This document shows, one piece after another, positions 7,856 to 62,725 of a DNA stretch of 64,000 bases. The notes below the pieces were generated by a model. The model was given only the letters and a program-made list of their open reading frames with translations. It had not been told where the DNA came from and did not search any database. The stretch covers positions 758,702-822,701 of the forward strand of contig OZ220694.1 in assembly GCA_965116525.1 (NCBI GenBank), in the 5' to 3' direction. The translations under genes and the position numbers were made by a program. Every line of letters starts with the position of its first letter. The first letter of the stretch is position 1. The DNA is from an uncultured candidatus Porisulfidus sp. (GTDB taxonomy: Bacteria; Pseudomonadota; Gammaproteobacteria; Poriferisulfidales; Poriferisulfidaceae).

Positions 7856-7876
7856 AGGCTGGCCGAAAGCCTTCGA

Positions 7877-43069: not shown

Positions 43070-43101
43070 ACGCAACAGGTCGGGTTCAGCCAGCACTGCG
43101 A

Positions 43102-44238
43102 TCAATTCAGCTGGATTCTCTCGCCCCACGGCACGGGTGCGCGGCCCTTGACCAGCCACAGCACCGGGTAAGGCGGCTCGGTATCCGGGTAACGGCCTTG
43201 GGCATCCGTGAAGTACAACAGCAGGTCTGGCATGCGGTCCTGGCGATTCACCCATTCGAAGACCGGGCGAAACGAAGTGCCGCCGCCGCCACTGACCTGG
43301 GTCGGCGCCTCCAGTGTCTCCCAGGGCTCAAACACTTTCGGGCCCCCCGAGGACAGTTCCTGGTCGCATGCCAGCAGCGTGATGCGGGCGCGCAAGGCTC
43401 CCTTGATCGCGTTGACCTCGCCGACGAATTCCGCGATCTCGGCATCCGAGACCGAACCGCTGACGTCCAGCGCGGCCACAAGATCGACTTCACGGCCGCG
43501 AAGGCTCGGGTAGATTGCGGGTCCTTCCCGGCGCGTGGACGTGCGCTGGTAACTGTAGTCGTCGCGTGCCAGTGCGCCGGTATGGCGGGCGAGCAGTTGC
43601 CGCCACGGCAAACGCGGGATCAGTTGCGGGGAAAAATGCCGCTCGAAGCTCTCGGACAGCCGCCCGGCCTGCCGGGTCGCATCCAGAGCGCGTGAAACCC
43701 GGGCCTGCCAAGTAGCCGCCATGGCGTTCTGCTTCGCCGAACTGAGGGGGCGGGGTCCGGCCGCTGGATCCTCGCGGCCCGACGAATCACTGTACATATG
43801 CAGGTCCTGAGTCCGCTTGTCCTCCATTTCGTCGAGACAGGGGTAGATTTCCTCCGCAGTGAGATCCGAGAACTTCGGTTCGTACAAGGCACCCTGGGGG
43901 AGCATCATGTCCTCGGCGACCAGCAGGCAATTCACCGCATAGTCGCAGGCGACATCCCAGCGTCCCCGGACTCGATGGCCTTTCCGGTGCAGGTGCAGCA
44001 GCGCGCAGTGAAGGGCCTCGTGACAGAGCACCGACTGGACTTCCTCACCGGTCAGGCGGTCGATATAGGCAGGGTTGTAGTAGAAATTCTGCGTATCGGT
44101 CGCCGTGGTCCGGCACCAGTCCTCCCCTTCCACCAGCGGCAACTGTAAAACCAAGGCGCCGAGAAAAGGCCGGTCCAAGACCAACCGGGTGCGGGCCTGC
44201 GCCAGTCGGGTCTTCGCGTCGCGCGCCGCGGGCATCAA
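43102..44238 (-). CDS. VWA-domain protein with N-terminal DUF2201 putative metallopeptidase-like domain (MoxR partner)
   Basis: 378-aa protein. The N-terminal region has an HExxH-like motif (LCHEALHCALLH). The C-terminal region is VWA-like with a MIDAS-type DxSGS motif (LDVSGSVSD). It has a 4-nt overlap with the upstream AAA+ gene. Confidence 0.65.
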   Translation of the reverse strand: MMPAARDAKTRLAQARTRLVLDRPFLGALVLQLPLVEGEDWCRTTATDTQNFYYNPAYIDRLTGEEVQSVLCHEALHCALLHLHRKGHRVRGRWDVACDYAVNCLLVAEDMMLPQGALYEPKFSDLTAEEIYPCLDEMEDKRTQDLHMYSDSSGREDPAAGPRPLSSAKQNAMAATWQARVSRALDATRQAGRLSESFERHFSPQLIPRLPWRQLLARHTGALARDDYSYQRTSTRREGPAIYPSLRGREVDLVAALDVSGSVSDAEIAEFVGEVNAIKGALRARITLLACDQELSSGGPKVFEPWETLEAPTQVSGGGGTSFRPVFEWVNRQDRMPDLLLYFTDAQGRYPDTEPPYPVLWLVKGRAPVPWGERIQLN

Positions 44239-45281
44239 TCGTAAACCAGCAGCTCCGCGACCTGATCCGCCCAGGGCTTGAATTCCGGCGCGCTGAACAC
44301 CGGCTCTTCCCCGACCCCGCGCAACAGGTCGCAGACCAGCATGACGCCGATCTCGCGTTGCGGAAACCGTCCGGCGTAAGTCAGGACCGGACCCAACACC
44401 CCATCGAGCTTCGACTCCTTCTTAGCGCGCACTGCTCGGCCGACCAGTGCGGCAGCCACGGCGTACTGCAGATCCACCGATTCCGGAATGGTCGTGTCCT
44501 TGCCTGCCAACACGTCGTCCAGGTCCGGCAATTCCGCGGCGTGCTGAACGAAGGCATTCAACTGCATCCCCGCGGCCGGTCCCACACAGGCCTGAAGCGC
44601 TTCACCCAGCACCGAGGGGTCGGATTCGAACTTGTGCAGCGCCCGGTGCGCGAACTCCCAGGATCGCGGGGTGGGAAACGCGCTGGGATTGTGCTCGGCG
44701 TCGAAGTCGAACAGAAGTTCCGGGCGCAGCCGCAGAAAACCGATCACCCGATCGTCAATCCCCTCTCCGTAGGCCCATTGCACCCAGTCGTCCAAGTGTA
44801 CGTCGAGCTCAAAGTGCGAGAATCGGTTGGCAAGCGGCGAAGGCATCACATAGGTCACGCCGCGGTCGCCCTGCCGATTGCCGGCCGCAAAGATGGCCCA
44901 ACCGTCCGGCACCTGGTAATGACCGAGCCGCCGGTCCAGAATCAACTGGTAGGCGGCCGCGGAAACAGTCGGCGCAGCCGAAGTGATTTCGTCCAGAAAC
45001 AGGATTCCGTTCGGTCCGTGGCGGTCCACATTCGGCAGCATGGCCGGAATCGCCCAATCCACCGTGTCGTCCACGCGAAAAGGTATGCCGCGCAAGTCGC
45101 TCGGCTCCATCTGCGACAGGCGGATATCAATCATCGGCGCCGTATGACGGTCGGCGACCTGCGCCACGATCTGCGACTTGCCCACGCCGGGTGGCCCCCA
45201 GATCATGGCCGGCGTGTGGTGTCCCTTAGCCGCGCTTCGGAACTCCTCTTCCAGTACTCGGGCCAGTTGAGACGGACGCAT
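44235..45281 (-). CDS. MoxR-like AAA+ ATPase (AAA_5 family)
   Basis: 348-aa protein with Walker A (GPPGVGKS), Walker B (ILFLDEI) and sensor regions. The architecture is typical of MoxR/CbbQ-type ATPases. Confidence 0.8.
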   Translation of the reverse strand: MRPSQLARVLEEEFRSAAKGHHTPAMIWGPPGVGKSQIVAQVADRHTAPMIDIRLSQMEPSDLRGIPFRVDDTVDWAIPAMLPNVDRHGPNGILFLDEITSAAPTVSAAAYQLILDRRLGHYQVPDGWAIFAAGNRQGDRGVTYVMPSPLANRFSHFELDVHLDDWVQWAYGEGIDDRVIGFLRLRPELLFDFDAEHNPSAFPTPRSWEFAHRALHKFESDPSVLGEALQACVGPAAGMQLNAFVQHAAELPDLDDVLAGKDTTIPESVDLQYAVAAALVGRAVRAKKESKLDGVLGPVLTYAGRFPQREIGVMLVCDLLRGVGEEPVFSAPEFKPWADQVAELLVYD

Positions 45282-46825: not shown

Positions 46826-46899
46826 TGGAGCGGGTGAAGGGAATCGAACCCTCGTTATCAGCTTGGGAAGCTGAAGTTCTACCATTGAACTACACCCGC
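46826..46899 (-). tRNA. tRNA-Gly (anticodon CCC)
   Basis: The reverse complement is GCGGGTGTAGTTCAATGGTAGAACTTCAGCTTCCCAAGCTGATAACGAGGGTTCGATTCCCTTCACCCGCTCCA. This forms a canonical cloverleaf with anticodon loop TTCCCAA, a T-loop GGTTCGATTCC, and a 3' CCA. Confidence 0.85.
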
Positions 46900-46977
46900 T
46901 TGAATTTCTATTCTACTTGCTGCCCTGCCCGCAAAGCACTCCTGTCAGACCGTGGCCGAAACGCACGGATGGGTGCT

Positions 46978-47601
46978 TCAGGGTTTGTCTTCCTCACCGC
47001 TTAGAAGACGGCGCAGGTTCTCTTGGTGCCGATAGACGATCACCGCGCCCAGAAGAAGGCCTGCCAACACGAGGTCCCAGCCCCGGTGCACCGCCCAAGC
47101 ATAGAGCGGCAAGGCGGCGGCAATGGCGATGGAAGCCGCCGAGACCCGTCGGTACAGCGCATAGCCAAGCAGCCAGGTCGCCAACCCCATGGCCAACAAT
47201 ACCGGATTCAATACCGCCATCATTCCGGCCAACGTCGCCACGCCCTTCCCGCCCCGAAAGCGGTAATAGACTGGCCACACGTGACCAATCACCACCATGA
47301 CGCCGGCCACCACGGCTGGCGTCGGCCAAGCAGGCGAAAGGGGCTCCCCGGCAACGTAAAGCGCCAGCGCCACGGCCAGTGCCCCCTTGCCGGCGTCTCC
47401 GGCCAAGGTGGCCACGGCCCATCTCCTGTTTTTGCTGACTCGAAGCATGTTGGTTGCGCCCGGATTGCCGGAACCCTCGGTCCGCGGGTCCGGCAGGCCG
47501 CAAGCCCTGCTTATAATCAAGGCGCTGTTGACCGCGCCGATCAGATAGCTGCCCAGCGCCACACCCAGCAGCATAAGTAGAAAGTGGACTTCAGCACTCA
47601 T
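46978..47601 (-). CDS. plsY: Glycerol-3-phosphate acyltransferase PlsY
   Basis: Conserved LPDPRTEGSGNPGATN and GGKGVAT motifs in a multi-TM protein. The start is taken at MSAEVH; the alternative upstream ATG is at 47619. Confidence 0.8.
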   Translation of the reverse strand: MSAEVHFLLMLLGVALGSYLIGAVNSALIISRACGLPDPRTEGSGNPGATNMLRVSKNRRWAVATLAGDAGKGALAVALALYVAGEPLSPAWPTPAVVAGVMVVIGHVWPVYYRFRGGKGVATLAGMMAVLNPVLLAMGLATWLLGYALYRRVSAASIAIAAALPLYAWAVHRGWDLVLAGLLLGAVIVYRHQENLRRLLSGEEDKP

Positions 47602-49256: not shown

Positions 49257-49745
49257 ATGGCCGATCTAACCCACTTTAACGCCCGGGGCGAAGCCCGTAT
49301 GGTCGATATTTCGGACAAGGAGGCCACGCACCGCGTGGCGGAGGCGGAAGGGCGCATCCTGATGCAAGCGGAGACCTTGGAGCAAATCCGGGAAGGGACC
49401 CATCGCAAAGGCGATGTGCTCGGCATCGCGCGCACCTCGGGAATCATGGCGACCAAACGCACCGCCGATCTGATTCCGCTGTGCCACCCCCTGTCCCTGA
49501 CTCATGTGGCCGTGGAGTTCGAGTTGGAGAATGAGCCTCCCGCCGTGCGCTGTCTCGCCCGTTGTGAAACCCGCGGGCCCACCGGAGTCGAGATGGAGGC
49601 CCTCACGGCAGTGCAAATCTCGCTGTTGACCATCTACGACATGTGCAAGGCTGTCGACCGGGGAATGCGCATCCAAGACATCGGGCTGCTGCGCAAGTCC
49701 GGCGGCCGCTCCGGAGACTGGGCACGCGAATCCGCCTCGTCGTAA
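49257..49745 (+). CDS. moaC: Cyclic pyranopterin monophosphate synthase MoaC
   Basis: 162-aa protein with MoaC signature blocks ([25 protein letters not shown]). Confidence 0.9.
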
Positions 49746-51853
49746 TGTCCGTATTATCCAAAACTTTCCGCTATACCGCTTTCGGCGTCCTGACGCTGGT
49801 GCTCGCCAGCCTGCTGGCCCTCAGCTACCTGGTATTGACCTTCGAGCCCGACGACTACCGGGACGACCTGATCAACCTGGTCGAGGAACAGACCGGACGG
49901 GCGTTCACCATCGACGGAAGCCTGGAGCTGCACCTGGACCCCCCGCTGGTCGGATTCGAGGTCCATGACGTCTCATTCGACAACCCTCCTGGGTTCGGGC
50001 AGGAGCCCATGCTGACCGCAAAGCGCGTTGAAGCATACTTGCAAGTCATCCCTTTGCTGATGGGCGACCTGCGAATCCGCTCCATGCGCCTGGATGGGCT
50101 GCAACTGCGGCTGCGCCGGAAATCGAACGGGCACACCAACTGGGCCGGTCTGCTTGCCGACAAGGAGTCCTCCCGACCCGAAGCCGGGTCCGACTCGGGC
50201 GGGGCGGCAGGAATCGATCTGGGCGAGATCCGCCTGACCGACAGCACCATCGCGATCTGGGACGAACTGCGCAACCGCCGCATGCGGGGATCAAACCTCA
50301 ACCTGAACCTGGAGAACCTGACGTCCGGCGGCAACATGCACGTCGAACTGGACGGCGAATTGATGGCTTGGCTTGACACCCGGGCCGAGAACCGGATCAA
50401 CGCCCAAGTCAAGCTGGCCACCGACCTCACCCTGAAGAAGGGTGGAGAAAAAATCACCGGCGACGACTTGGACATGACACTGGAGTTGACCGGGCCGGCA
50501 TTCGCCTTCACGCGCATCAACCCCACGATCCAGGCACGATCTTTTCAATGGGATCAGGCCAGCGACACTCTGTATCTCGATGGGGCCGAAGCGACGGTCG
50601 AGGGGGCGCAGTTGCGATTCGCTCCGCTGGAGGTGAAATCCCTGTCTGAAAAGCCGGAGCTGATCGGACATGTCGAGGGAGCCGGCGTCGATGTCCTGCA
50701 CTGGCTGGCACTCTGGAATCACCAGATGCCCACCCTTGAAGATCCGACCGCGCTACGGTTCCTGAAATGGGAAAGCGATCTCAGGGTCCATCCGCGAGGC
50801 GTTCAACTGTCGGGACTGGATGCAACACTGGACTCCACCTCGATCCGGGGAGAAATCTCCCTGCTCGACTTCGACCGGCCGCGGCTTGCGCTGAACCTGC
50901 AAGTGGGCGAAATCGACCTGGACCGGTACCTGCCGCAGGAACAGCAAGCCGAAGCCGAGGATCAAGCCGAGCCCGGCGACGACCCCGCGCCTCCGGACGG
51001 CCTGCCGATCGACTGGTTGCGCCAGCAGAAACTCGTGGCCAAGGTGCAACTGGAACAACTGCACTGGCAAGGGCTAGAATTCGCGGAAACGCACGCCCGG
51101 CTGACTGCCGACGAAGGGCTCTGGGAAGTCGAATCACTGAGCGGGAAAGTCAATGATGGCGTAGTCCAGGCCGGGGCGGAGTTGGATGTTTCCGGCGGCA
51201 TCCCCCTGTATAAGCTTGACTTGAAGCTGGAACAACTGGAGCTCGGCCGCGTGCTGGCACTGTTCGACGAGGACGGACACACCCCTATCGAAGGCACGAC
51301 CGACCTGAACCTGGCCCTGAACGCGCGCGGGCACCGCGCCGCCACGGTCTGGCCTTCCCTGACCGGCTTTGTCAGCCTGACCGTGCGCAATGGCGTGCTG
51401 CAGGTCGGCGAGGTCGCCAGGGCTGTGGAAGCCGCCATTGCGATGTTGCAGGAACGTCCCAGCGAAACCACTTCCCAAGGGAAACTGCCGTTTGACCTGT
51501 TGCTCGTAAGTTGGAACGCCAACGACGGTCGGTTGACCAGTCGCGAACTGAAGATGGACGCTGGCGCGATCTCCCTGGACGGGCTGGGTTACATCGACCT
51601 GCCGCATTCGTCGGTCGACTACCAGTTGAACGTCTGGTCCGGCCAGAGCCTGAAGATTCCGGTGCGCATCAAGGGGCCGTTCGACAACCTGTCGCACTCT
51701 CTGGACATGTCGGGACTGGTAGAGGAACAACTGGACAAAGGACTGCAGAAGGGCTTGGGGTCCGTCGTCGACAAGGTTGAGAAAAAAGTCGAAGAAAAAG
51801 CCGGCAAACCCACCGGCAAGGTCCTGCGAAAACTACTCGAAGACCTATTCTGA
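49745..51853 (+). CDS. asmA: AsmA-family outer-membrane assembly protein
   Basis: An N-terminal TM anchor is followed by a long beta-rich periplasmic domain and a C-terminal AsmA-like region. The start overlaps the moaC stop (TAATG). Confidence 0.65.
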   Translation: MSVLSKTFRYTAFGVLTLVLASLLALSYLVLTFEPDDYRDDLINLVEEQTGRAFTIDGSLELHLDPPLVGFEVHDVSFDNPPGFGQEPMLTAKRVEAYLQVIPLLMGDLRIRSMRLDGLQLRLRRKSNGHTNWAGLLADKESSRPEAGSDSGGAAGIDLGEIRLTDSTIAIWDELRNRRMRGSNLNLNLENLTSGGNMHVELDGELMAWLDTRAENRINAQVKLATDLTLKKGGEKITGDDLDMTLELTGPAFAFTRINPTIQARSFQWDQASDTLYLDGAEATVEGAQLRFAPLEVKSLSEKPELIGHVEGAGVDVLHWLALWNHQMPTLEDPTALRFLKWESDLRVHPRGVQLSGLDATLDSTSIRGEISLLDFDRPRLALNLQVGEIDLDRYLPQEQQAEAEDQAEPGDDPAPPDGLPIDWLRQQKLVAKVQLEQLHWQGLEFAETHARLTADEGLWEVESLSGKVNDGVVQAGAELDVSGGIPLYKLDLKLEQLELGRVLALFDEDGHTPIEGTTDLNLALNARGHRAATVWPSLTGFVSLTVRNGVLQVGEVARAVEAAIAMLQERPSETTSQGKLPFDLLLVSWNANDGRLTSRELKMDAGAISLDGLGYIDLPHSSVDYQLNVWSGQSLKIPVRIKGPFDNLSHSLDMSGLVEEQLDKGLQKGLGSVVDKVEKKVEEKAGKPTGKVLRKLLEDLF

Positions 51854-51857
51854 ACCC

Positions 51858-52874
51858 GTGTCGTCGTTTGCCCGCCGGGTAATCCGCTACCAGCGCAGAC
51901 ACGGCCGTCACGACCTGCCCTGGCAGCGTCAACGCACGCTGTACCGGGTCTGGGTCTCCGAAATCATGCTGCAGCAGACCCAGGTCGCAACCGTGATCCC
52001 CTATTTCCAGCGGTTCATGCGGGCATTCCCGAGCGTCAAGCGGCTGGCCGAAGCGCCTCTGGATGCCGTGCTGGCGTGCTGGTCCGGGCTGGGCTACTAC
52101 GCCCGGGCCCGCCACCTGCATCAAGCCGCGCGAATCATTCGAAGTTCGGGAGGCCGGCTGCCGCGCACCGTCGAGGACTGGGTGCGCTTGCCGGGCGTCG
52201 GCCGCAGCACGGCCGGTGCCATTGTTTCGCTGGCCCTGGATCAACCCGCGCCGATGCTGGACGGCAATGCGCGGCGCGTCATCGCACGACATCAAGGCCT
52301 GCCTGCGACCCTCAACGCATCCCTATGGCGTGCTGCCGAGTCGTTGCTGCCGAGGCGGGACGCCGGCCTCTATACCCAAGGCCTGATGGACCTGGGGGCC
52401 CAGTGTTGCACGTCGCGCACTCCCGACTGCGTGCACTGCCCGCTGAACGAAGACTGCGACTACACCAGGCATGGATCCATTGAGCAACCCGGCCGCAAGC
52501 GGTCGCAATTGCCGCACCGAACGGCTTGGGTCGTCATCGTACAGACAGAGAACGGGGAAGTCCTTTTGCGGCAGAGGCAGGCTCATGGCATCTGGGGCGG
52601 GCTGTGGAGCCTGCCGGAATACCCGAGCCGGATTGAGGCACGGCGTTGGACACAGGCCTGCGGAGAAAATCTGGAATGGCGTGAGGAGCCCTCGCTGACT
52701 CATCGCCTGAGTCATCTGGAGCTTTGCCTTCGTCCGCTGCGGGTTCGGATCCGGAATTCGGATCGCAAGAAATTCCGGCAAAGCGGGCGTTGGTTTCACC
52801 CGAAGCAACTGACCGTCGGCGTGGCGACTCCGATTCTGAAACTGATCCAACGCGAGCCACCCCCCGCCGCATAG
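51858..52874 (+). CDS. mutY: A/G-specific adenine DNA glycosylase MutY
   Basis: HhH-GPD domain (WSGLGYYARARHL), 4Fe-4S cluster loop (CTSRTPDCVHCPLNEDC), and C-terminal NUDIX-like domain. The GTG start at 51858 lies just after the asmA stop. Confidence 0.8.
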   Translation: MSSFARRVIRYQRRHGRHDLPWQRQRTLYRVWVSEIMLQQTQVATVIPYFQRFMRAFPSVKRLAEAPLDAVLACWSGLGYYARARHLHQAARIIRSSGGRLPRTVEDWVRLPGVGRSTAGAIVSLALDQPAPMLDGNARRVIARHQGLPATLNASLWRAAESLLPRRDAGLYTQGLMDLGAQCCTSRTPDCVHCPLNEDCDYTRHGSIEQPGRKRSQLPHRTAWVVIVQTENGEVLLRQRQAHGIWGGLWSLPEYPSRIEARRWTQACGENLEWREEPSLTHRLSHLELCLRPLRVRIRNSDRKKFRQSGRWFHPKQLTVGVATPILKLIQREPPPAA

Positions 52875-52945
52875 CCTCACACTCTCCTTAATAAGACACC
52901 GCGTGGTACAGTCATCAATGCCGATGTTACATCTAGGGGGGCCAG

Positions 52946-53584
52946 GTGATCACCGTCAGCGAGGAAGTGCTGCTCCTGATGCTCGACCACGACACCGGCG
53001 GGCTGAACGCTGAGTTTTCGCTCCCTTCCCTGCGCCATGCACTCGGCGGCGCCCTCCTGATGGACCTGTCCCTCGCAAACCGGGTGGATGCCGACCTGGA
53101 AAAGCTGTTCGTCGTGAATCCAGAGCCGCTCGGAATTGCCGTTCTCGACGAGGCCCTGGCGAAAATCGCGGCGGAGGACCGACAGCAATCCACCGGCCAT
53201 TGGGTCCGCGTCTTCGCCGATGACTACGAGCACGTCCAGCCACAACTGCTGGAACAGCTGGTCGATCGCGGCATCTTGCTTCGTGCGTCGCTCGATCGGA
53301 TTACTGCTCCTGACGCACAGGATCGTCACACCAAAGAAGACAGGCCCCTATGGGATGTCCGGCAAAGAATCATCTATGAGCTGCTGAGCAGCACGATCCT
53401 TGATGCGCGGGATGTCGCGATTATCAGCCTGATCGAGGCCTGCGGCTTGTGGAGCGGGCTGCTGGATCAGGACAGCCTGGACGAGCTCCGGCCCAAGATA
53501 AAAAAATTCGCAAAGATTGAACTGATCGGCCAGGCCGTGGCGGATGCCATGCAGGAACAATCACGGCGGCAGGATGCGGTTTGA
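52946..53584 (+). CDS. GPP34/GOLPH3-like family protein
   Basis: The N-terminal EEVLLLMLDHDTGG matches the EELLLLALDDEKG signature of bacterial GPP34 proteins. Length is about 210 aa. Confidence 0.5.
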   Translation: MITVSEEVLLLMLDHDTGGLNAEFSLPSLRHALGGALLMDLSLANRVDADLEKLFVVNPEPLGIAVLDEALAKIAAEDRQQSTGHWVRVFADDYEHVQPQLLEQLVDRGILLRASLDRITAPDAQDRHTKEDRPLWDVRQRIIYELLSSTILDARDVAIISLIEACGLWSGLLDQDSLDELRPKIKKFAKIELIGQAVADAMQEQSRRQDAV

Positions 53585-53636
53585 TCCAGCTGACTATAAT
53601 TCTCTGAATCCGCGACCGCCTTTGGCAGGGACAAGT

Positions 53637-54524
53637 ATGGACAAGGTTAATCAATCCGCCACCCTGCTGCTTGGGATCCTAGTTTGCACAGTATTTCTGG
53701 CCAGTGCCCCGGCTCCGGTTTCCGCAGCGCAGGAAGGCGTTTATATCGGGATTTCCGCCGCTGCGGAAGACCTGGATGTTTCAGTGTTCAAGACCGTCGA
53801 CAACACACCCGACGGAAACATGGCCTTATCCCAAGGCAAGATATTCACGGAACGGGATTCCGACACCAAGACGGCAAGCGGGTTCGGGCTCGTGTTCGGA
53901 TACCAGTGCCCCCTCCATTACGGGAGCCTGTACTGGAGCGGCGAGATCAACCTGGCCTTCCACAGCGGGAAGGCACGCGGAAGGCTTGAAGGAACCGAGG
54001 ATGTCGCGGCGCGAAAAACCCACAACGATGCAAACGACCCGGACTTGCCAGCCTTTTCGGTCGGACCGCAGGTCGGTGAAAACTGGCCGGAGCGCTGGAC
54101 CTTCGAAAAAGATCATAGCTACGGCGTGACGCTCAGGCTGGGCGGGCGGCCGGACTTCCTCACCTCCGCGCTTGGCCCGGACGCCGGACTTTACGTTTTA
54201 GCCGGAGCGCACCGGGTCGAAGCCGAATACGTCAATACCGGAACCGGCTGCTTCGAAGTTCCTCCGGCACTTTGCGCAAGCGAGGAGGAATTCGAGGCGA
54301 GTGCCGTTCGTACCAAAAGAGACTACACCACCTGGACTCTGGGCGTGGGAGTGCACGCGCCGGTCGCGGAGCAGGTGGGCCTGCAAATCGAAACGTACTA
54401 CAAGGACTACGATTCGGAGTCTCTGGTGCAGCTGGACGGAACGGAGGACCTGCGCGTCCGGGCCGTGCACGAGCCGGATGCCGAGGAAATCGGCCTGAGA
54501 ATGAGGCTGCTGCGGTACTTCTAG
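53637..54524 (+). CDS. Outer-membrane beta-barrel protein (paralog 1)
   Basis: Signal peptide LLLGILVCTVFLASAPAPVSA, alternating amphipathic beta-strands, and a C-terminal ...GLRMRLLRYF with terminal Phe. Confidence 0.55.
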   Translation: MDKVNQSATLLLGILVCTVFLASAPAPVSAAQEGVYIGISAAAEDLDVSVFKTVDNTPDGNMALSQGKIFTERDSDTKTASGFGLVFGYQCPLHYGSLYWSGEINLAFHSGKARGRLEGTEDVAARKTHNDANDPDLPAFSVGPQVGENWPERWTFEKDHSYGVTLRLGGRPDFLTSALGPDAGLYVLAGAHRVEAEYVNTGTGCFEVPPALCASEEEFEASAVRTKRDYTTWTLGVGVHAPVAEQVGLQIETYYKDYDSESLVQLDGTEDLRVRAVHEPDAEEIGLRMRLLRYF

Positions 54525-54534
54525 TCTCAGCCGC

Positions 54535-55395
54535 ATGAAGAGATTCGAACGTTCGGGATTTTCCGCGGTCCTAGCCTGCGCGGCTGTACTGACTGGCGCT
54601 CCTGGCCCTTCTTCCGCCATGGAGGAAGGGTTCTACATGGGGTTTTCCGCCTCTGCGGAAAACCTGGACGCCACCTTCTTCAAGACCACGGACAACACGC
54701 ATCCCATGAATGCGACCCCTTCCAGCGGCCGGATTTTTCACGTCCGCGATTCCGACACCAAGACGACAAGCGGGTTCGGCATCCTGGCCGGCTACACTTT
54801 CCACCTGAACAATCGGGGGCTGTATCTGAGCGGTGAAGCCGATTTGGCCTATCACAGCGGAAAAGCTCGGGGCAGGTTGAAGTGGATCAAGGATTCCGCG
54901 GCCCGGGAGAGTGCGGGCAGCGATCCCGACTGGCCGCAATCTGGCGAAAGCTGGCCGGATGACTGGACCTTCGAGAAGGACTACAGCTACGGCCTGACGC
55001 TCAGGTTGGGCGGACAGCCGAACTTCCTGACCTCTGCGTTGGGGCCGGGCTCCGGCCTCCATGTCCTAATTGGCATCCGTCGCACTGAAGCAGAGTACTT
55101 CAATTCCTACGAAGGGTGCCCCGCAAACGATGGCTGTCCTGGCGGAAGGGAAGATGAATCATACGCAAGGGGATTCGACCGGACCGACAGGGACTACACC
55201 GCCTGGACTGCTGGAATCGGCTTGCATACACCGCTCGGCGACCGAACCAGCGTGCAGGTTGAGACGTACTACACCGATTACGACAGGGAAGACCTGGTTC
55301 TCCTGGACAACACGGGCGAACCGTACATCCGGGTCCCGCACGCGCTGGATGCCGAAGAGGTCGGCTTGCGGTTGCGACTGCTCCGGCATTTCTGA
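54535..55395 (+). CDS. Outer-membrane beta-barrel protein (paralog 2, tandem duplicate)
   Basis: Collinear with 53637-54524 and highly similar to it (e.g. WTFEKDxSYGxTLRLGGxPxFLTSALGP, ...GLRLRLLRHF). Confidence 0.55.
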   Translation: MKRFERSGFSAVLACAAVLTGAPGPSSAMEEGFYMGFSASAENLDATFFKTTDNTHPMNATPSSGRIFHVRDSDTKTTSGFGILAGYTFHLNNRGLYLSGEADLAYHSGKARGRLKWIKDSAARESAGSDPDWPQSGESWPDDWTFEKDYSYGLTLRLGGQPNFLTSALGPGSGLHVLIGIRRTEAEYFNSYEGCPANDGCPGGREDESYARGFDRTDRDYTAWTAGIGLHTPLGDRTSVQVETYYTDYDREDLVLLDNTGEPYIRVPHALDAEEVGLRLRLLRHF

Positions 55396-55417
55396 ACACA
55401 CCAGGCTGCTGCAGGCC

Positions 55418-56188
55418 ATGCCTCCCTTGGCATCCCGAACTTCTCTCCGTAGACAGTGCAAGGTTTCCATCTGCGTCATTCTTGCCGCCGGCTTTCACGT
55501 TCCGACCGTTTCGGCCGAAACATGGCGAGGCCTTGTCGTCGAGCCGGAATATCGTTGCGCACCCTACAGAAGCCGTGACTACTCCTACCCGCAGTCGGTG
55601 GAGCCTAGAATCGTCGCTGAACTCGGGAAAATCTACAGCCCCTATAACGGGCAGTGCTTCAGCAGCACCCGGCAGACCGACATCGAACATATCGTGGCCC
55701 GTTCCGAAGCGCATGACAGCGGACTGTGCCGCGCAGATGTTGCCACGCGGAAAAAGTTCAGTGCCGATCTCCTGAACCTGACACTGGCGAGCCCCGCGCT
55801 GAACCGACAGAAGAAACGCGCTTACGATGCTTCCGGATGGACACCTGCCCTCAACCGTTGCTGGTTCGCCCACCGCGTGCTCCAGGTGCGTCTCAAGTAC
55901 GGGCTGAGCATCGACCAGCGCGAAGCGGAGGCTCTGGAGCAGATCCTGTCCGCCTGCACAACCACCGAAATCGAAACATCGGACTGCTCTGCTTCGTTCG
56001 ACCTCCCGGCTTCCCGCCCTGCGTCATCCCCGGATGGAGCGGAGGCCCTCCGCCTCTGGGACGACAACCGGAACGGAAGAATCACTTGCCGAGAAGCGCG
56101 CCGCCACGGCATTACGCCCGTGCCGCGCGGTCATGCTGCCTATCCGTTCATGCATGACGGGGACGGGGATGGTATGGTCTGCGAGTGA
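55418..56188 (+). CDS. Secreted HNH/DUF1524-like nuclease with C-terminal Excalibur Ca-binding domain
   Basis: Signal peptide ...VSICVILAAGFHVPTVSA. The HNH/DUF1524-like core is QTDIEHIVARSEAHDSGLC ... NLTLASPALNRQKKRAYDASGWTP. The C-terminal Excalibur motif is DDNRNGRITCREA...MHDGDGDGMVCE. Confidence 0.5.
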   Translation: MPPLASRTSLRRQCKVSICVILAAGFHVPTVSAETWRGLVVEPEYRCAPYRSRDYSYPQSVEPRIVAELGKIYSPYNGQCFSSTRQTDIEHIVARSEAHDSGLCRADVATRKKFSADLLNLTLASPALNRQKKRAYDASGWTPALNRCWFAHRVLQVRLKYGLSIDQREAEALEQILSACTTTEIETSDCSASFDLPASRPASSPDGAEALRLWDDNRNGRITCREARRHGITPVPRGHAAYPFMHDGDGDGMVCE

Positions 56189-56219
56189 CAAGCCTAACGA
56201 TGGAAACGAAAGGTCGAAA

Positions 56220-56495
56220 TCAACGGAAAAACTCCACATAGAAACGAACCTTGCCGAGCGCCATGACCTCATGCGCAATCTCCGGCTCCACGATTCCGGG
56301 CATCTCCGGTGCAAGTTCCGTATCCTGGGTTTCGGGTTCCAGAATGCGGTAGCGTAAGCGGCCTTCCAGAATAACGATTTTCCCCCAGACCCCCGCACTG
56401 GTCCGGTGCTGTTTCTTGAGATTTTTCGGTATCGTGTCTTCCGTGAATTCAGGAGAACTGGCAAAACTTGAAACTTCTTCGGGCAGGGTTTTCAT
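56220..56495 (-). CDS. DUF1971-domain protein
   Basis: About 90-aa protein with a GVWGKIVILEGRLRY block typical of DUF1971. Confidence 0.45.
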   Translation of the reverse strand: MKTLPEEVSSFASSPEFTEDTIPKNLKKQHRTSAGVWGKIVILEGRLRYRILEPETQDTELAPEMPGIVEPEIAHEVMALGKVRFYVEFFR

Positions 56496-56696
56496 GGCAA
56501 TAACTCCTATATTTCTCTCTGTTACGGATCGTCGACGAACATTCTGCCTGGCCACAATCACCGCGACCATGCACCCTCGCTATAGTGTTGTTCGATTGTA
56601 GCAGTGGCGTGCCCCGCCAAAGCCTTGCCGATAACCCACCGTCAGGCCCATCACTTATAATCGCCTCATCAATTCTCTTTCGGAATCTATCTCACA

Positions 56697-56969
56697 ATGT
56701 CCCGCATGATCCAATGCGTCAAACTCGGCCGCGAAGCCGAGGGTCTGGAGCGGATGCCCTACCCGGGACCGCTCGGGCAGCGCATTTTCAATGAAGTATC
56801 GGCCGAGGCCTGGGGCGGCTGGCTGCGCCACCAGACCATGTTGATCAACGAGTACCGTCTGACCCCGGTCGACCCCAAGGCGCGAGAGTTTCTGGAAGGA
56901 GAAATGGAAAAATATTTCTTTGGGGAAGGCTCTGAAAAACCACAGGAATTTGTTGATCCGGAAAGCTAG
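56697..56969 (+). CDS. yggX: Fe(II)-trafficking / oxidative-damage protection protein YggX
   Basis: 90-aa protein with [18 protein letters not shown]...[16 protein letters not shown], the YggX signature. Confidence 0.85.
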
Positions 56970-57063
56970 GCGCCAATTCGACACGACTTTTCCACGTCGT
57001 TGTAATCAAACTGACATATTCCGCCGGAATAATGTCGGTCTCTGAAAGGCCCGGCGTTCCCTG

Positions 57064-58443
57064 GTGTCCCCACTTTATCTGATCTTCGTACTGCTGGCAT
57101 TGTCGTCGGCAGCCTATTACTTCAGCCAGCGCCGCATGCTGCGGCAGACCCGGGACGCCCACGCCACGCGTCTCAACTCCCTGCCCGAGTATTTTGGGAT
57201 GCTGGGCGCTATTTGGGCTGGCGCCCCCGCCCTGCTGGTGTACTTCGTGTGGCTGGCCTTCGAGGGCGACATCCTCATGGCCCAGGTACTGGAGATGCTG
57301 CCGGATGCGGATTCCATGGCGGCCACCCGGGAGTTGCTGATCGGTGACATCCGCAATGCCATCGAAAACCCTATCAGCTATCGGATAGCCAGCGAGGAAG
57401 TCCGCATGGCGGCGGACCGCTACCGCGAACTGGCTCAGACCGCCACGCTCGCGCTGACCGCGACGTGCCTGTCGGTGTTCGCCGTTTGTTCCGCATTGGC
57501 CCTGAAGTTTATGACTCCCCGCATCCGTGCCCGGGACCAAGTCGAAAAAATCATTCGTGGATTCCTGCTGCTGTGCTCGATGCTGGCCATTTTCATTACC
57601 ATCGGCATCGTGCTTTCGGTGCTGTTCGAGGCCAGCCGATTCTTCCAGACCGTTTCGGTCACAGAGTTCCTGTTCGGACTTGATTGGAGCCCGCAGATGG
57701 CGATCCGCGAGGATCAGGTCGGTTCCAGTGGGGCCTTTGGCGCCGTGCCGCTGTTCGTTGGCACTCTGCTCATCTCGTTCATTGCAATGCTGGTGGCTGC
57801 TCCCGTCGGCCTGATGTCGGCAATTTACCTGTCCGAATATGCTCCGTCCAAGGTTCGAGCCACGGTCAAGCCGCTGCTGGAAATCCTGGCCGGCGTTCCG
57901 ACCGTCGTGTACGGCTTCTTCGCTGCTATCGTGGTCGGTCCGGCATTGCGTGGCTTCGGGCAGTCCGTCGGCCTCGATGTCGCCTCCGAAAGCGCCTTGG
58001 CGGCCGGCTTCGTGATGGGCGTCATGATCATTCCCTTCGTCTCGTCGATTTCCGACGACGTGATCACGGCCGTGCCGCAGGCCATGCGCGACGGTTCGCT
58101 GGCGATGGGGGCCACCCATTCCGAGACCATGCGCCGGGTCATTCTCCCTGCCGCCCTCCCTGGCATCATTGGCGGCCTTCTGCTGGCCATCTCGCGTGCC
58201 ATCGGCGAGACCATGATCGTGGTCATGGCCGCCGGCCTGTCCGCCAACCTGACGGCCAACCCGCTGGAAGCCGTGACCACGGTCACCGTTCAGATCGTCA
58301 CCCTGCTGGTCGGCGACCAGGAATTTGACAGCCCCAAGACGCTGGCCGCGTTCGCCTTGGGCCTGGCTCTGTTCTTCATCACTCTGGTACTCAACTTCAT
58401 CGCCCTCTACGTGGTGCGCAAATACCGGGAACAGTACGAATGA
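57064..58443 (+). CDS. pstC: Phosphate ABC transporter permease PstC (long form with N-terminal extension)
   Basis: Conserved ABC-permease EAA-like loop and PstC blocks (GTLLISFIAMLVAAPVG). Length is 459 aa. Confidence 0.85.
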   Translation: MSPLYLIFVLLALSSAAYYFSQRRMLRQTRDAHATRLNSLPEYFGMLGAIWAGAPALLVYFVWLAFEGDILMAQVLEMLPDADSMAATRELLIGDIRNAIENPISYRIASEEVRMAADRYRELAQTATLALTATCLSVFAVCSALALKFMTPRIRARDQVEKIIRGFLLLCSMLAIFITIGIVLSVLFEASRFFQTVSVTEFLFGLDWSPQMAIREDQVGSSGAFGAVPLFVGTLLISFIAMLVAAPVGLMSAIYLSEYAPSKVRATVKPLLEILAGVPTVVYGFFAAIVVGPALRGFGQSVGLDVASESALAAGFVMGVMIIPFVSSISDDVITAVPQAMRDGSLAMGATHSETMRRVILPAALPGIIGGLLLAISRAIGETMIVVMAAGLSANLTANPLEAVTTVTVQIVTLLVGDQEFDSPKTLAAFALGLALFFITLVLNFIALYVVRKYREQYE

Positions 58444-59714
58444 GCCGCACCGAACAGATCGTCTCCGGGCTGGCCCGGCGACAGCGGGCCGAGAAGCGGT
58501 TCCGACTCTACGGCCTGATTGCCATTGTCCTCGGCATGTCCTTCCTGCTGCTGCTGTTCGGCAGCATCGTCACCAACGGCCACAAAGCGTTCACCCAGAC
58601 CTATATCGAATTGCCGATTTATTTCAACCCCGAAGTCATCGACCCGGGCGGTGAACACGACCCCCAGACCCTGTTTTCGGCCGACTACTGGAAACTGGTG
58701 AAAACCGCCATGTACCAGAAGTTCCCCCAGGTCAGCGGACGGAAAGAACGCCGCGAACTGGCCCGGATGATCAGCGAAGGCTCAGCATATGAACTGCGCG
58801 ATCAGGTCCTGGAGAATCCCGGCCTTATCGGGACTACGCGGTACATCTGGGTGGTGGCCGACGACGACATCGACATGCTGATGAAAGGCTACATCGACCG
58901 GGAGGTGCCGGAAGACGAACGACGCCTGAACGATCGGGTCATCGGCTACGTGGACGACCTGCGCGAGGCTGGCGTCATCGAGCGGCAGTTCAACACCACG
59001 TTCTTCACCGCCGGAGATTCCCGGGAACCGGAACAGGCGGGCATTCTCGGCGCGTTGACGGGGTCGTTCCTGACCCTGATCATCACCTTGCTGCTGTCGT
59101 TTCCGATCGGGGTGGCCGCCGCGATCTACCTGGAAGAGTTCGCACCCCGCAATCGCTTCATCGACCTGATCGAGATCAACATCAACAACCTGGCCGCCGT
59201 GCCCTCGATCATCTTCGGCTTGCTCGGGCTCGCCATCTTCATCAACTGGTTCGGCATGCCCCGCTCCACGGCGATCGTGGGCGGGCTGGTGCTGGCGCTG
59301 ATGACGCTGCCCACGATCATCATTGCCTCGCGCGTCTCCATCCAGGCGGTCCCCCCATCCATCAAGGAAGCCGCGCTCGGCGTCGGCGCTTCGCGCATGC
59401 AGGCGATGTTCCACCACGTGTTGCCCATTGCCATGCCCGGCATGCTGACCGGCACCATCATCGGTATGGCGCGGGCACTCGGCGAAACGGCCCCGCTGCT
59501 AATGATCGGCATGGTGGCTTTCATCGTCGAGCCGCCCAGCGGGTTCACGGACCCGGCCACTGCCCTGCCAGTGCAAATCTTCCTGTGGTCGGACAGCCCC
59601 GAGCGCGGCTTTACCGAGCGCACTTCCGCCGCAATCCTGGTGCTGCTCGCATTTTTGATCGCCATGAACGCCGCTGCCGTCTACCTGCGCGAGAAAGTCA
59701 CCAAGCGATTCTGA
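58440..59714 (+). CDS. pstA: Phosphate ABC transporter permease PstA (long form)
   Basis: Its start overlaps the pstC stop (ATGA). Conserved PstA blocks are present, and it has a large periplasmic N-terminal loop. Confidence 0.85.
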
Positions 59715-59748
59715 CAGACCCGATTTACCCGGACAAACCACTATAATT

Positions 59749-60615
59749 ATGAACATCACCGAAACCTTGGCCATTCCGATTCCGGAACAATCCGCCCCCT
59801 CTTCCGCAACCGGGTTTGCGGATCTTGATCTGACTACGGTCGGGGATGTCACCGTCCCGGATCCGCGGATGAAACTCCGCGACATCAACGTGTTCTATGG
59901 CAAGAAACAAGCCGTCTTCGATGTCAACCTCGATATCGGATCGAACTCGGTCGTGTCCATGATCGGCCCGTCCGGCTGCGGGAAAACGACGCTGCTGCGC
60001 TGCCTCAACCGGATGAACGACACGATCGACGGCTGCCGGGTCGAAGGCCGGGTCGAAATGGACGGCAAAAACGTCTACGCGCGCAAGGTGGACCCGGTCC
60101 TGCTGCGCGCCCGAGTCGGCATGGTCTTCCAGAAACCCAATCCGTTCCCGAAGTCGATCTTCGACAACGTCGCCTACGGCCCACGCATCCACGGACTGGT
60201 TCGCGACCGCACCGACCTGGAGGAAATCGTCCACACCTCGCTGGAGCGGGCAGGCCTGCTCGACGAGGTCAAGGACCGGCTGGATCAGCCCGGCACCGGG
60301 CTGTCCGGCGGCCAGCAGCAGCGCCTGTGCATCGCGCGCGCCATCGCGGTCAGCCCTGAAGTGATCCTGATGGACGAGCCCTGCTCGGCACTGGATCCGA
60401 TCGCCACCGCCAGGATCGAGGAGTTGATCGGCGAATTGCGGAAGAATTTCTCCATCGTCATCGTCACCCACTCCATGCAGCAGGCCGCACGCGTCTCCCA
60501 ACGGACCGCCTACTTTCATTTGGGTTACCTGGTCGAGGTGGGTCCCACCAAGGACATCTTCACCACGCCGAAGCACCAGTTGACCGAGGAGTACATCACG
60601 GGCCGCTTCGGCTGA
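59749..60615 (+). CDS. pstB: Phosphate ABC transporter ATP-binding protein PstB
   Basis: Walker A (GPSGCGKTT), signature LSGGQQQR, and Walker B (ILMDEP). Confidence 0.9.
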
Positions 60616-60621
60616 TTCCGG

Positions 60622-61920
60622 CTAGCGCCCTTTGCGACTCCCCATAGGGGGCGGAAACACGCAGGTGAAGGTGCTGCCTTTGCCCCATTCACTGTCGATC
60701 TGCAGCCGCGCGCCATGGCGCTGCAGGATGTGCTTCACGATTGCAAGCCCGAGCCCCGTGCCGCCGGTACCGCGCGACCGCGCCTTGTCCACGCGATAGA
60801 AGCGCTCGGCCAGCCGGGCGATGTGATCTTTCTCGATGCCGACCCCCTGGTCGGTGACCGACAGGCGGACCCTGTCGTTTTTGCGTTGCCACCCGATGGT
60901 GACCACGCCCCCGTCCGGCGAGTAGCGCAGCGCATTGCTGACCAGGTTGAATAGTGCGCTGTGCAACTCTTCCGGCCGCCCCCGGACCTGAATCCCGGCC
61001 TCGCCCTCCACCTCGATCGTATGCTGGGCTTCCGAAGTCAGGGTCTGGGCTTCATGCCTTACCTCGCTCGCCAGGTGCGCCAGATCCACGTCCTGCAGGT
61101 CATGGTCGCTCAATTCGCTGGCTTCCAGCCGGGACAATTCCAACAGATCGTCTACCAAGCTGCGCATGCGCTGGCACTGGCGCGACATCTCGCGGATGAC
61201 GGATTGTTCCGGGGGCTTGCCCGCGTGGTCTTCGAAGGTCTCCAGGTAGCCGGTGACCACGGTCAGGGGGCTCTTGATTTCGTGCGATACGTTGGCGACG
61301 AACTCTTGGCGCAACCGGTTCATGCGGATTTCCTGGGTCAGATCACGAAACGTGATCAGCCGGGCATGCCGCCCGAACGTCGAGACCTGTATGCTGACCG
61401 GATGCGAGGCGCCCGCGAATGTCTCCAGATTCAACGGCAGGGCGAAGTCTCCTTCCTGCAGGTACTGCACCAGTTCCGGAATGCGCACCACGTGCACCAG
61501 CAAGCGGCCCTGATCATCTGCCTGCAAGTCCAGCAGGGATTCGGCGGCTTCATTGAACCATTCGATCCGCAATTCCGAGTCCACGGCTACGGCGGCATCC
61601 GGCAAGGCGACCGACAGGGCTTCAAATTTCCGTTGAAGGCGCTCCAGCTCCCGCTTGACCTGGGCCGCCTGATGGCGGCGGTCCGCCAGTTCCGCGGCCC
61701 ACTTGCGCCAGACCGGCGCCAGATTATGCGGGATCGGTGCCTGTGGAAGGCGCTCCCATTTCCGTACCTGATGCCACTGCCGCGCGTGCCACAGGAGAAA
61801 AAGAAGCAACGCCAGACTCAGCCCCAGGCTTGAGGCAGCAAAAGGCAAGCCGATCACTACGCCGATCGCCACCATCAGCGCCAGGCGCGCGACCTCTTGG
61901 GAAAGCGGGGATCCCCACAC
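60622..61920 (-). CDS. phoR: Phosphate regulon sensor histidine kinase PhoR
   Basis: Two N-terminal TM helices, a PAS-like region, the H-box (NVSHEIKSPLT), and a HATPase_c domain. It lies adjacent to phoB. Confidence 0.85.
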   Translation of the reverse strand: MWGSPLSQEVARLALMVAIGVVIGLPFAASSLGLSLALLLFLLWHARQWHQVRKWERLPQAPIPHNLAPVWRKWAAELADRRHQAAQVKRELERLQRKFEALSVALPDAAVAVDSELRIEWFNEAAESLLDLQADDQGRLLVHVVRIPELVQYLQEGDFALPLNLETFAGASHPVSIQVSTFGRHARLITFRDLTQEIRMNRLRQEFVANVSHEIKSPLTVVTGYLETFEDHAGKPPEQSVIREMSRQCQRMRSLVDDLLELSRLEASELSDHDLQDVDLAHLASEVRHEAQTLTSEAQHTIEVEGEAGIQVRGRPEELHSALFNLVSNALRYSPDGGVVTIGWQRKNDRVRLSVTDQGVGIEKDHIARLAERFYRVDKARSRGTGGTGLGLAIVKHILQRHGARLQIDSEWGKGSTFTCVFPPPMGSRKGR

Positions 61921-61928
61921 TCGAGTCG

Positions 61929-62669
61929 TCAGGCGGCCTTAGGCCGCTTGACCCTTTCGGATTTCTTCTTGTTTTTCGTGGGCGGGTCGGTGTGAAACTG
62001 GTAGCCCGCGCTATGGATGGTGCGGATGTGACCGGATGCCTTCTTGCCGAGCGCCTTGCGCAAACGCAGGATATGCACGTCGATGGTCCGCTCCTCGATG
62101 TAGCTGTTCTGTCCCCACACCTGATCCAGCAGCTGGTTGCGGCTGTACACCCGATTGGGGTGCGCCATCAGGAAACGCAGCAGCCGGAATTCCGTCGGTC
62201 CCATTTCCACCTGCTTCTTGCCCACCCACACCTCGTGGCGGATTGAGTCGAGCTGGACGTCCCCGTGCTGCAGGCTGGGGCTCGCGATATGCGGCGCGGA
62301 GCGGCGCAGCAGGGCATTGATGCGGGCTTTCAGTTCGCGCGGCGAGAACGGCTTGGACACGTAGTCGTCCGCTCCGCATTCCAGTCCGCGCACCTTGTCG
62401 GATTCCTCCCCGCGGGCGGTCAGCATGATGATCGGGAGTTCGGCCGTCGGCGCGTCCTTGCGCAGACGCCGGGCCATCTCCAGGCCACTTTGCCCGGGCA
62501 GCATCCAGTCGAGCAGAACCAGGTCCGGCTTATGGTCGGCAATCAGTCCGTAGGCCTGCTGTGCGTCTTCCGCTTCCAGCAGTTCGAAATCGGATTGCCT
62601 AAGGGCGTAACTCACCATCTCGCGGATAGCGGGCTCGTCCTCGACGATGAGGATTTTTGCAACAGGCAT
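61929..62669 (-). CDS. phoB: Phosphate regulon response regulator PhoB
   Basis: Receiver domain (ILIVEDEPAIREM...D) plus OmpR/PhoB winged-helix domain. The start is taken at MPVAKIL. It has a Lys-rich C-terminal tail. Confidence 0.85.
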   Translation of the reverse strand: MPVAKILIVEDEPAIREMVSYALRQSDFELLEAEDAQQAYGLIADHKPDLVLLDWMLPGQSGLEMARRLRKDAPTAELPIIMLTARGEESDKVRGLECGADDYVSKPFSPRELKARINALLRRSAPHIASPSLQHGDVQLDSIRHEVWVGKKQVEMGPTEFRLLRFLMAHPNRVYSRNQLLDQVWGQNSYIEERTIDVHILRLRKALGKKASGHIRTIHSAGYQFHTDPPTKNKKKSERVKRPKAA

Positions 62670-62671
62670 TC

Positions 62672-62725
62672 TTATGCTAGTTTGAGTTACAAATATTACA
62701 GTATTCTGACATTTTGCGGGTGCCA
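62672..62725 (-). promoter_or_regulatory. AT-rich phoB upstream region with Pho-box-like direct repeats
   Basis: In the phoB orientation the sequence reads ...TGTCAGAATACTGTAATATTTGTAAC... This is two or three 7-nt CTGTCAT-like repeats spaced by 4 nt, resembling the Pho box consensus. Confidence 0.3.

Follow-up and report, generated by a model that had tools for sequence, protein, structure and literature searches.

We find that mutY and yggX, which normally adjoin in Proteobacteria, are separated in an uncultured candidatus Porisulfidus sp. (Gammaproteobacteria; Poriferisulfidales) by a clade-specific cell-envelope locus that is likely old, vertically inherited, and built stepwise, with no single recent insertion behind it. 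The locus lies in a 64,000-nt stretch of contig OZ220694.1 (assembly GCA_965116525.1, positions 758,702 to 822,701), hereafter the window, and all window coordinates are positions within that stretch. From the mutY stop (52874) to the yggX start (56697), the gap measures 3,822 bp and holds five genes, whose content and coordinates are as an earlier note, made from the DNA letters, had given them. These encode a short-form GPP34 (GOLPH3-like) protein of 212 amino acids (aa) (52946-53584, forward strand; PF05719, 111 bits); two outer-membrane proteins (OMPs) modeled as eight-stranded beta-barrels, OMP1 (295 aa; 53637-54524, forward) and its paralog OMP2 (286 aa; 54535-55395, forward); a predicted secreted nuclease of 256 aa (55418-56188, forward); and a DUF1971 (YeaR/TehB N-terminal-like) protein of 91 aa (56220-56495, reverse; PF09313, 77 bits). 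The left anchor is the mutY open reading frame (ORF; 51777-52874, forward; Pfam HhH-GPD, NUDIX_4, HHH), encoding an A/G-specific adenine glycosylase, and the right anchor is yggX (56697-56969, forward; PF04362 Iron_traffic, 139 bits), encoding an Fe2+-trafficking protein. Translation of mutY probably starts further downstream than the first in-frame TTG, as alignments with orthologs begin at residue 17-30. For OMP1, the ORF list gave a start at 53544, and 53637 is preferred from orthologs and the signal peptide; the longest DUF1971 ORF extends to 56570. All components are of known kinds, and what is new is the OMP subfamily and the organization of the locus.

The split arrangement is derived relative to other Gammaproteobacteria, because mutY and yggX are adjacent in most proteobacterial genomes. 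A MutY scan of species-representative genomes yielded 80 proteobacterial mutY loci, and yggX starts 0-393 bp 3' of mutY in 58 of them (median ~38 bp). This agrees with the published observation that YggX has MutY as its immediate 5' neighbor in Gammaproteobacteria (PMC11078426). The Escherichia coli operon is mutY-yggX-mltC-nupG (Gifford and Wallace 1999, as cited in PMC11078426). The window shares the order and strand of mutY and yggX with that operon. It differs in having 3.8 kb with five genes between them, a yggX with its own conserved -10 box, and pstCAB-phoRB in place of mltC-nupG.

Among the species-representative genomes, the sole close relative was a Gammaproteobacteria genome bin (L001; MutY 75-76% identical); a metagenome scan gave nine loci, and about eight loci carry our reading of the order of events. 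The relatives form a nested series of arrangements. One locus (L098) reads MoaC-AsmA-MutY-nuclease and has neither an OMP gene nor yggX. Two others (L083 and L100) have one OMP, in the order AsmA-MutY-single OMP-nuclease-...-YggX-PstCAB-PhoRB, and L100 also has three small ORFs. Both OMPs are found in L081 (MutY-OMP1-OMP2-nuclease-YggX-PstCAB-PhoRB, without GPP34 or DUF1971) and in L001, which has DUF1971 on the reverse strand between the nuclease and YggX and lacks GPP34. In L087, whose AsmA is 97% identical to that of the window, an OMP1 remnant is followed by OMP2, the nuclease, DUF1971, an 813-aa autotransporter (PF03797), and then yggX. Two contigs with DNA 92-96% identical to the window, L091 (MutY-GPP34-OMP1) and L086 (OMP2-nuclease-YggX), have GPP34 and lack DUF1971; L086 has 48 bp in place of the window's 496-bp DUF1971 segment.

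Because the relatives form this nested series, the core of OMP(s) and nuclease is ancestral to the clade. OMP and nuclease are already at the site in L001, L081, L083, L087, L100, and L091/L086, and relatives with as little as 71% MutY identity still have the core. GPP34 and DUF1971 were added separately and are patchy, with different distributions among the relatives, and the stretch from the nuclease to yggX forms a variable slot. The earlier note had named, as the finding that would speak against an insertion, the same genes between mutY and yggX in all related genomes. This is nearly what we see for OMP and nuclease, which are shared; GPP34 and DUF1971 are patchy. Thus, the part of its insertion claim that holds is the derived arrangement, and the single 3.7-kb event does not, given the nested subsets and the lack of mobility genes and repeats. 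Where a classic gene pair is broken, the break can be old and clade-wide and does not have to reflect a recent insertion.

The interval does not have the marks of a genomic island or mobile insertion. We found no direct or inverted repeats beyond chance flanking the block, only paralog similarity and short chance-level matches, and there is no integrase or mobility gene flanking it and no tRNA gene within the mutY-yggX interval. GC content at third codon positions (GC3) is 0.69-0.73 for GPP34, the OMPs, and the nuclease, and 0.68-0.85 for neighboring genes. DUF1971 is the only compositional outlier (GC 0.525, with neighbors at ~0.62; GC3 0.59).

OMP1 and OMP2 are true tandem paralogs, lying head to tail and close to the ~290 aa that the earlier note gave for each, and their divergence indicates an old duplication. 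The proteins are 54% identical over 283 residues (E = 2e-103), above the 40% that the note had set as a floor. At the DNA level, the alignment that it had proposed for dating the duplication gives an old age and not a young one: identity is 64% (51% at third positions), nonsynonymous divergence (dN) is 0.35, and synonymous divergence (dS) is 1.23. This dS equals or exceeds that between orthologs of the window and the most distant genomes (0.8-1.0). Exact matches reach at most 18 nt, and there is therefore no gene-conversion tract between the two genes; a single 125-nt stretch shows 78% identity. A neighbor-joining tree of 80 family members (100 bootstraps) separates an OMP1-type clade that includes single-copy forms (P0073, P0071; 97% bootstrap) from an OMP2-type clade (94%) and a third paralog clade (282 aa; 100%) that sits elsewhere in the genome. 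The third type (L082 10001-10849; L088-L090) is 58-64% identical to OMP2 and lies between HSP20 and amino-acid kinase genes; none is present within the window.

The two identical blocks from which the earlier note had concluded a recent duplication, WTFEKDxSYGxTLRLGGxPxFLTSALGP and GLRxRLLRxF, do exist in both paralogs. They reflect constraint rather than youth, because they are conserved family-wide, even in members at 37-40% identity. Within 74 OMP sequences, W144, F146, E147, K148, D149, S151, G153, R157, L158, G159, and G160 of the first block are invariant or nearly so, as is the C-terminal G277-L278-x-x-R281-L282-L283-R284-x-F286. In the structural model, the first block is the fourth strand, with lipid-facing aromatic and aliphatic residues alternating with polar lumen-facing ones, and the second is the last strand, ending in the Phe typical of outer-membrane proteins. 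Where long identical blocks of paralogs fall on a conserved barrel strand and on the signal for membrane insertion, they are therefore no sign of recent duplication. Divergence is asymmetric, with OMP2 the faster-evolving copy: OMP2 is 77% and OMP1 86% identical to the L081 ortholog, and 71% and 82%, respectively, to that of L001. Both are under purifying selection (omega, dN/dS, 0.12-0.29; OMP1 0.12-0.23). In L087, the OMP1 pseudogene remnant (7893-8200) consists of the signal-peptide region fused to the last ~60 residues, with stops inside it; there, OMP2 and the nuclease remain intact, and OMP1 is therefore dispensable.

Both OMPs match PF13505 (OMP_b-brl) above the cut-off of 28.7 bits (43.2 bits for OMP1 and 39.7 for OMP2). 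The OMP2 model, built with 74 homologs, has a predicted local distance difference test (pLDDT) score of 81 and forms a closed antiparallel barrel of eight strands, each of 19-24 residues, with both termini on the periplasmic side; the third outer loop holds the invariant C195 and C201. Export signals can be read at both ends of the proteins: N-terminal hydrophobic segments that end ...VSA/AQEG and ...SSA/MEEG would be signal peptides, and the C-termini, ...RLLRYF in OMP1 and ...RLLRHF in OMP2 with F286 nearly invariant, have the form of an aromatic beta-signal. The closest structural neighbors of the model were the Legionella Dot/Icm "porin III" (9nh2; score 17.4), NspA (17.2), the OprF N-terminal domain (16.1), OmpW (15.2), OmpA (15.2), and PagL (14.8), so the structure prediction suggested in the earlier note does return a barrel of the NspA, OmpA, and OmpW kind. 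Foldseek gave generic barrel matches only, with template-modeling scores (TM-scores) of at most 0.46; the OMP profile matched no chain among PDB sequences, and no NCBIfam model matched the OMPs. The likeness to small eight-stranded barrels (NspA, OmpA, OprF N-terminal, OmpW, OmpX/Ail, and 9nh2) thus covers PF13505 above threshold, eight antiparallel strands in the model, and the C-terminal aromatic residue. Unlike those barrels, the mature OMPs are of ~260 residues (compared with ~150-190), with strands 20-24 residues long, a helix-containing second loop, and the loop with the invariant Cys pair. Because the hydrophobic alternation of the first strand spans only ~10 residues, about half of each barrel would stand out above the membrane, as it does in OmpX, Ail, and NspA.

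The model favors surface, structural, or adhesin-type barrels over diffusion porins, and neither OMP is a 16-stranded trimeric porin of the PhoE, OprP, or OmpF type. The phosphate-selective porins PhoE and OprP are 16-stranded trimers. Among 1.84 billion representatives, the OMP family comprises 265 clusters (50% identity) at E <= 1e-3 and 62 at E <= 1e-30. The subfamily is small, is without a studied member, and is apparently restricted to this kind of organism. The locus thereby defines a small, uncharacterized subfamily of unusually tall eight-stranded outer-membrane proteins, found, wherever a source can be traced, in sponge-associated Gammaproteobacteria.

The nuclease scores above threshold for both GmrSD_C/DUF1524 (29.1 bits; cut-off 23) and Excalibur (32 bits; cut-off 22). 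It has a catalytic His and a metal-binding Asn on a beta-beta-alpha fold, and its invariant residues are E90-H91, N120, N129, and six Cys. The model points to an exported, non-specific His-Me finger DNase with a calcium-binding Excalibur tail, probably stabilized by disulfides. Its extracytoplasmic location, which the earlier note had also proposed, is suggested by a signal-peptide-like N-terminus and the six invariant Cys. The closest solved fold is Vibrio endonuclease I, at 18% identity. The nuclease shares a secreted, Cys-rich beta-beta-alpha-metal core with the Vibrio endonuclease I family (Dns/Vvn/EndA), whose members are non-specific nucleases of the periplasm or the cell exterior; it differs from them in belonging to Pfam DUF1524/GmrSD_C and not to Endonuclease_1, and in having the C-terminal Excalibur domain. 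Putative extracellular nucleases with DUF1524 and Excalibur belong to group 3 of the His-Me finger proteins (PMC5714182), and this one is a typical member of a large, widespread family, with the two-domain architecture and an N-terminal hydrophobic segment. As far as we found, the class is known from bioinformatics only. Its homologs number 4,479, and those outside the clade reach 68% identity. Searches against PDB sequences gave only spurious ankyrin-repeat matches, and no NCBIfam model matched. A GmrSD-type defense or restriction nuclease was considered and rejected, as there is no DUF262 (GmrS) domain and no PADLOC match, and a signal peptide is present. We also rejected decay of the nuclease in L100, where the gene call is only 164 aa: tblastn recovers residues 3-256 in one frame at 79% identity, and the gene is probably intact.

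Promoter-like elements became visible only after the loci were aligned. A -10-like box, CTATAAT (53594-53600, forward), lies 36 nt 5' of the OMP1 start and shows no variation among the six aligned loci, with either mutY or GPP34 upstream; it is the putative promoter of OMP1-OMP2-nuclease. A second box, TATAAT (56656-56661, forward), lies 35 nt 5' of yggX and would mark that gene's own promoter; it is invariant in the window, L086, L081, L001, L087, and L083, whatever lies upstream. A default promoter scan found none, and it missed the OMP1 box for want of a good -35 element; terminators were no more numerous than chance predicts. OMP1-OMP2-nuclease is most simply read as one operon, because the gaps are short (10 nt from the OMP1 stop to the OMP2 start, and 22 nt from the OMP2 stop to the nuclease start) and there is a single conserved -10 box. 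Note that the GPP34 stop codon lies 9 nt before CTATAAT (window 53582-53600), and the -35 region of this promoter would therefore lie within the coding sequence of GPP34. Loci that lack GPP34 have unrelated sequence 5' of the OMP1 -10 box.

Pho boxes were sought as two 7-nt direct repeats 11 nt apart, using the E. coli consensus and a threshold of at least 10 of 14 matches. Two were detected, each with three mismatches to that consensus: TTGTAATCAAACTGACAT (57000-57017, forward; 11/14 half-site matches), 5' of pstC and downstream of yggX, and ATGTCAGAATACTGTAAT (62695-62712, reverse), ~30 nt 5' of phoB. The pstC box is identical and in the same place in L086 and L087, with one base different in L083. 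The E. coli-type consensus applies in this organism, as shown by the position of the second box, which fits autoregulation of phoBR. At this threshold, the mutY-yggX stretch of the window has no Pho box, nor is there a conserved one in six related loci. The OMP operon, the nuclease, and yggX thus do not appear to belong to the Pho regulon; yggX and pstCAB would be separate units, with only pstCAB visibly Pho-controlled. This speaks against the phosphate-responsive module that the earlier note had suggested, since Pho boxes stand only at pstC and phoB, and the OMP operon and yggX have their own -10 boxes.

The phosphate ABC transporter genes pstC, pstA, and pstB occupy 57064-60615 (forward; ORFs whose orthologs are annotated BPD_transp_1 and ABC_tran in Pfam), and phoB lies at 61929-62666 (reverse), with phoR likewise reversed downstream of pstCAB. 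Within 57064-62666, the gene immediately 5' of pstCAB is yggX and not pstS, and downstream of pstCAB is the opposite-strand phoR and no phoU; no search for either gene elsewhere was made. The lack of an adjacent pstS or phoU around pstCAB is also true of L081, L083, and L100.

Of the two later additions, GPP34 has a PF05719 domain that covers residues 5-204 of 212, making it a single-domain protein of ~200 aa. Besides the window's own, only two copies were found, P0350 (100% identical) and that of L091 (94% identical), and the gene is absent from L001, L081, L083, L087, and L100. A word-based search returned only six relatives, the nearest outside the species being 48% identical. A 2025 study (PMC11706023) reports enrichment of the short form, GPP34_S, among sponge symbionts, with 78% of 81 gammaproteobacterial genome bins from sponges having it. 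The protein here resembles those described in having a single GPP34 domain of ~210 aa, and the closest relatives of its host come from sponge metagenomes. It differs in having no P450 neighbor, which that paper often finds: no cytochrome P450 gene lies within five genes. It also has no signal peptide and no PADLOC match. DUF1971 has a match to TehB's N-terminal domain; the window, L001, and L087 have the gene, and L081, L083, and the close relative L086 lack it. All five interval genes appear functional, with omega of 0.1-0.3 (0.22 for GPP34 compared with L091). In L087, the autotransporter gene (10408-12849, forward) lies between DUF1971 and yggX and encodes a passenger domain with many repeats (GDINLEVRGGSVTTEGQYAYGI) and a beta-domain (PF03797); it has no counterpart in the window.

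The clade appears to consist of uncultured, sponge-associated Gammaproteobacteria with genomes of ~1.6-2 Mb. The closest loci, L086 and L091, come from an Aplysina aerophoba metagenome (MKWU01). Between the window and L087, dS is uneven: 0.08 for AsmA, 0.31 for MutY, 0.79 for OMP2, 0.41 for the nuclease, 0.03 for YggX, 0.45 for PstC, and 0.09 for PstB. This mosaic points to frequent homologous recombination between diverged related lineages, with the OMP2 allele the most divergent, and to recombination rather than positive selection, because dS is raised and not only dN. Across window 49600-60700, the range of 0.3-0.8 also spans PstC/A. Compared with L086, protein identity is 99% for PhoR and 87% for PstA.

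We propose that OMP1, OMP2, and the nuclease form a core operon with its own conserved -10 box. The OMPs appear to be Sec-exported and would probably be inserted into the outer membrane via the C-terminal ...LRLLR(Y/H)F signal, and the nuclease would degrade periplasmic or extracellular DNA. An old tandem duplication of the OMP gene would have been followed by asymmetric divergence, with both copies kept under purifying selection. GPP34_S would then have come in 5' of the OMP promoter, DUF1971 in the space from the nuclease to the yggX promoter, and, in one relative (L087), the autotransporter in that same slot. Throughout, yggX and pstCAB would have kept their own promoters, with a Pho box only at that of pstCAB among the block promoters examined. 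Parts are gained and lost independently, and they are thus not obligately co-functional.

Some points weigh against this reading. The order of events among the loci is a parsimony reading, and L098 may have lost the OMP or may never have acquired it. Loss of OMP2 may likewise explain the single-copy genomes (L083 and L100). The age of the duplication draws on a neighbor-joining tree and not on maximum likelihood, the predicted functions of the proteins on fold and domain content, and co-transcription on short gaps and one conserved -10 box. In addition, a degenerate or non-canonical Pho box may lie upstream of OMP1.

Several other explanations compete with an old, stepwise-built envelope locus. 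That the block arrived as a single recent 3.7-kb insertion with a recent tandem duplication of the barrels, as the earlier note proposed, we regard as highly improbable. The adjacency of mutY and yggX in most other genomes, the long identical peptide blocks, and the 125-nt stretch at 78% identity would fit it, but a dS of 1.23, DNA identity of 64% with no exact match longer than 18 nt, a separate ortholog clade for each paralog, and blocks kept at 37-40% identity all indicate an older duplication. Likewise, the core is found in every relative down to 71% MutY identity, the components differ in distribution, and no repeats flank the block. Greater weight belongs to the idea that unrelated genes piled up in a permissive spot after the mutY-yggX operon broke, their linkage having no functional meaning, although on balance we find this rather unlikely. 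The OMP1 pseudogene in L087, the DUF1971 indel between close relatives, GPP34 in one lineage only, the three small ORFs in L100, and the units with separate promoters are what such a process would leave, and elsewhere OMP homologs and nuclease homologs are not neighbors. Against it, the spacing of 10 and 22 nt and the single conserved -10 box favor co-expression of at least OMP1, OMP2, and the nuclease, and matching lengths of the longest contigs suggest that at least 16 contigs bear both OMP and nuclease.

Two functional themes have also to be weighed. Under one, which seems unlikely to us, the interval is a host-interaction hotspot for life in the sponge, with GPP34 a putative phagosome-modulating effector, the tall barrels and (in L087) the autotransporter adhesins, and the nuclease acting on host or food DNA. 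Every relative of traceable origin comes from a sponge metagenome, GPP34_S is reportedly enriched in sponge symbionts (PMC11706023), and L087 holds an autotransporter in the same slot. The OMP family, with 265 clusters among 1.84 billion representatives, is both small and restricted, and the mosaic of dS values is a sign that alleles have been exchanged at OMP2. However, GPP34 here has neither a signal peptide nor a P450 neighbor, the extracellular half of the barrel is highly conserved, unlike typical variable adhesins, omega of 0.1-0.3 gives no sign of diversifying selection, and DUF1971 is off-theme. Under the other theme, less probable still, the block is a phosphate-scavenging Pho module in which the nuclease frees DNA phosphate for PstCAB and the OMPs help DNA or nucleotides to bind at the surface or to pass. 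In Vibrio, extracellular nucleases allow growth with DNA as a phosphate source, the fold of this nuclease is closest to Vibrio endonuclease I, bona fide Pho boxes occur in the neighborhood, and OMP, nuclease, yggX, pstCAB, and phoRB stay linked across the clade. Yet descent alone accounts for that linkage, no conserved Pho box of at least 10/14 lies 5' of OMP1, OMP2, the nuclease, or yggX in seven loci, and the existing box is downstream of yggX. Moreover, the eight-stranded OMPs are unlike PhoE and OprP, the nuclease in L098 follows mutY without yggX or pst, and nuclease homologs elsewhere stand in unrelated contexts.

A bolder reading, to which we give little credence, is that the OMP pair and the nuclease form one surface unit of this sponge-symbiont clade, with barrels that tether or position the nuclease or bind DNA, and that the gap is a hotspot of host factors. 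If so, small-genome symbionts would harvest DNA-derived phosphate and nucleotides, or defuse host and foreign DNA, inside the sponge. The variable slot beside yggX, where surface and secreted genes come and go, could in any case guide searches for symbiosis factors in uncultured bacteria.

Further features were observed around the locus. The asmA and mutY ORFs of the window (49643-52874) overlap by ~75 nt. In L081, the public gene call for 5837-8977 is one 1046-aa product with no Pfam match on record; tblastn locates both AsmA and MutY there, which is probably a fused or miscalled gene. A variable spot (window 46826-46990) adjoins tRNA-Gly-CCC (46826-46899, reverse): positions 46923 and 46988 are only 65 bp apart in the window, and relatives hold 1.5-2.8 kb there. 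L081 has Fic and AAA_14/DUF4143 ATPase genes at this spot, and the corresponding neighborhood of L083 has an HTH-peptidase M78 gene and a PIN gene. The spot has the look of an integration hotspot linked to the tRNA gene, empty in the window. At 43102-45281 (reverse), a 348-aa AAA/AAA_5 ATPase gene stands beside one for a 378-aa DUF2201 protein (putative metallopeptidase with a VWA-like domain), followed by a gene for a 416-aa protein (42005-43255) with no Pfam match; none of the three matched a PADLOC defense model. The window also contains two TonB-dependent receptor genes (15510-18635, forward; 33563-35890, reverse), and the other genes sampled are housekeeping ones, encoding topoisomerase I, ArgRS, asparagine synthase, hydantoinase B, and NAD(P)HX repair.

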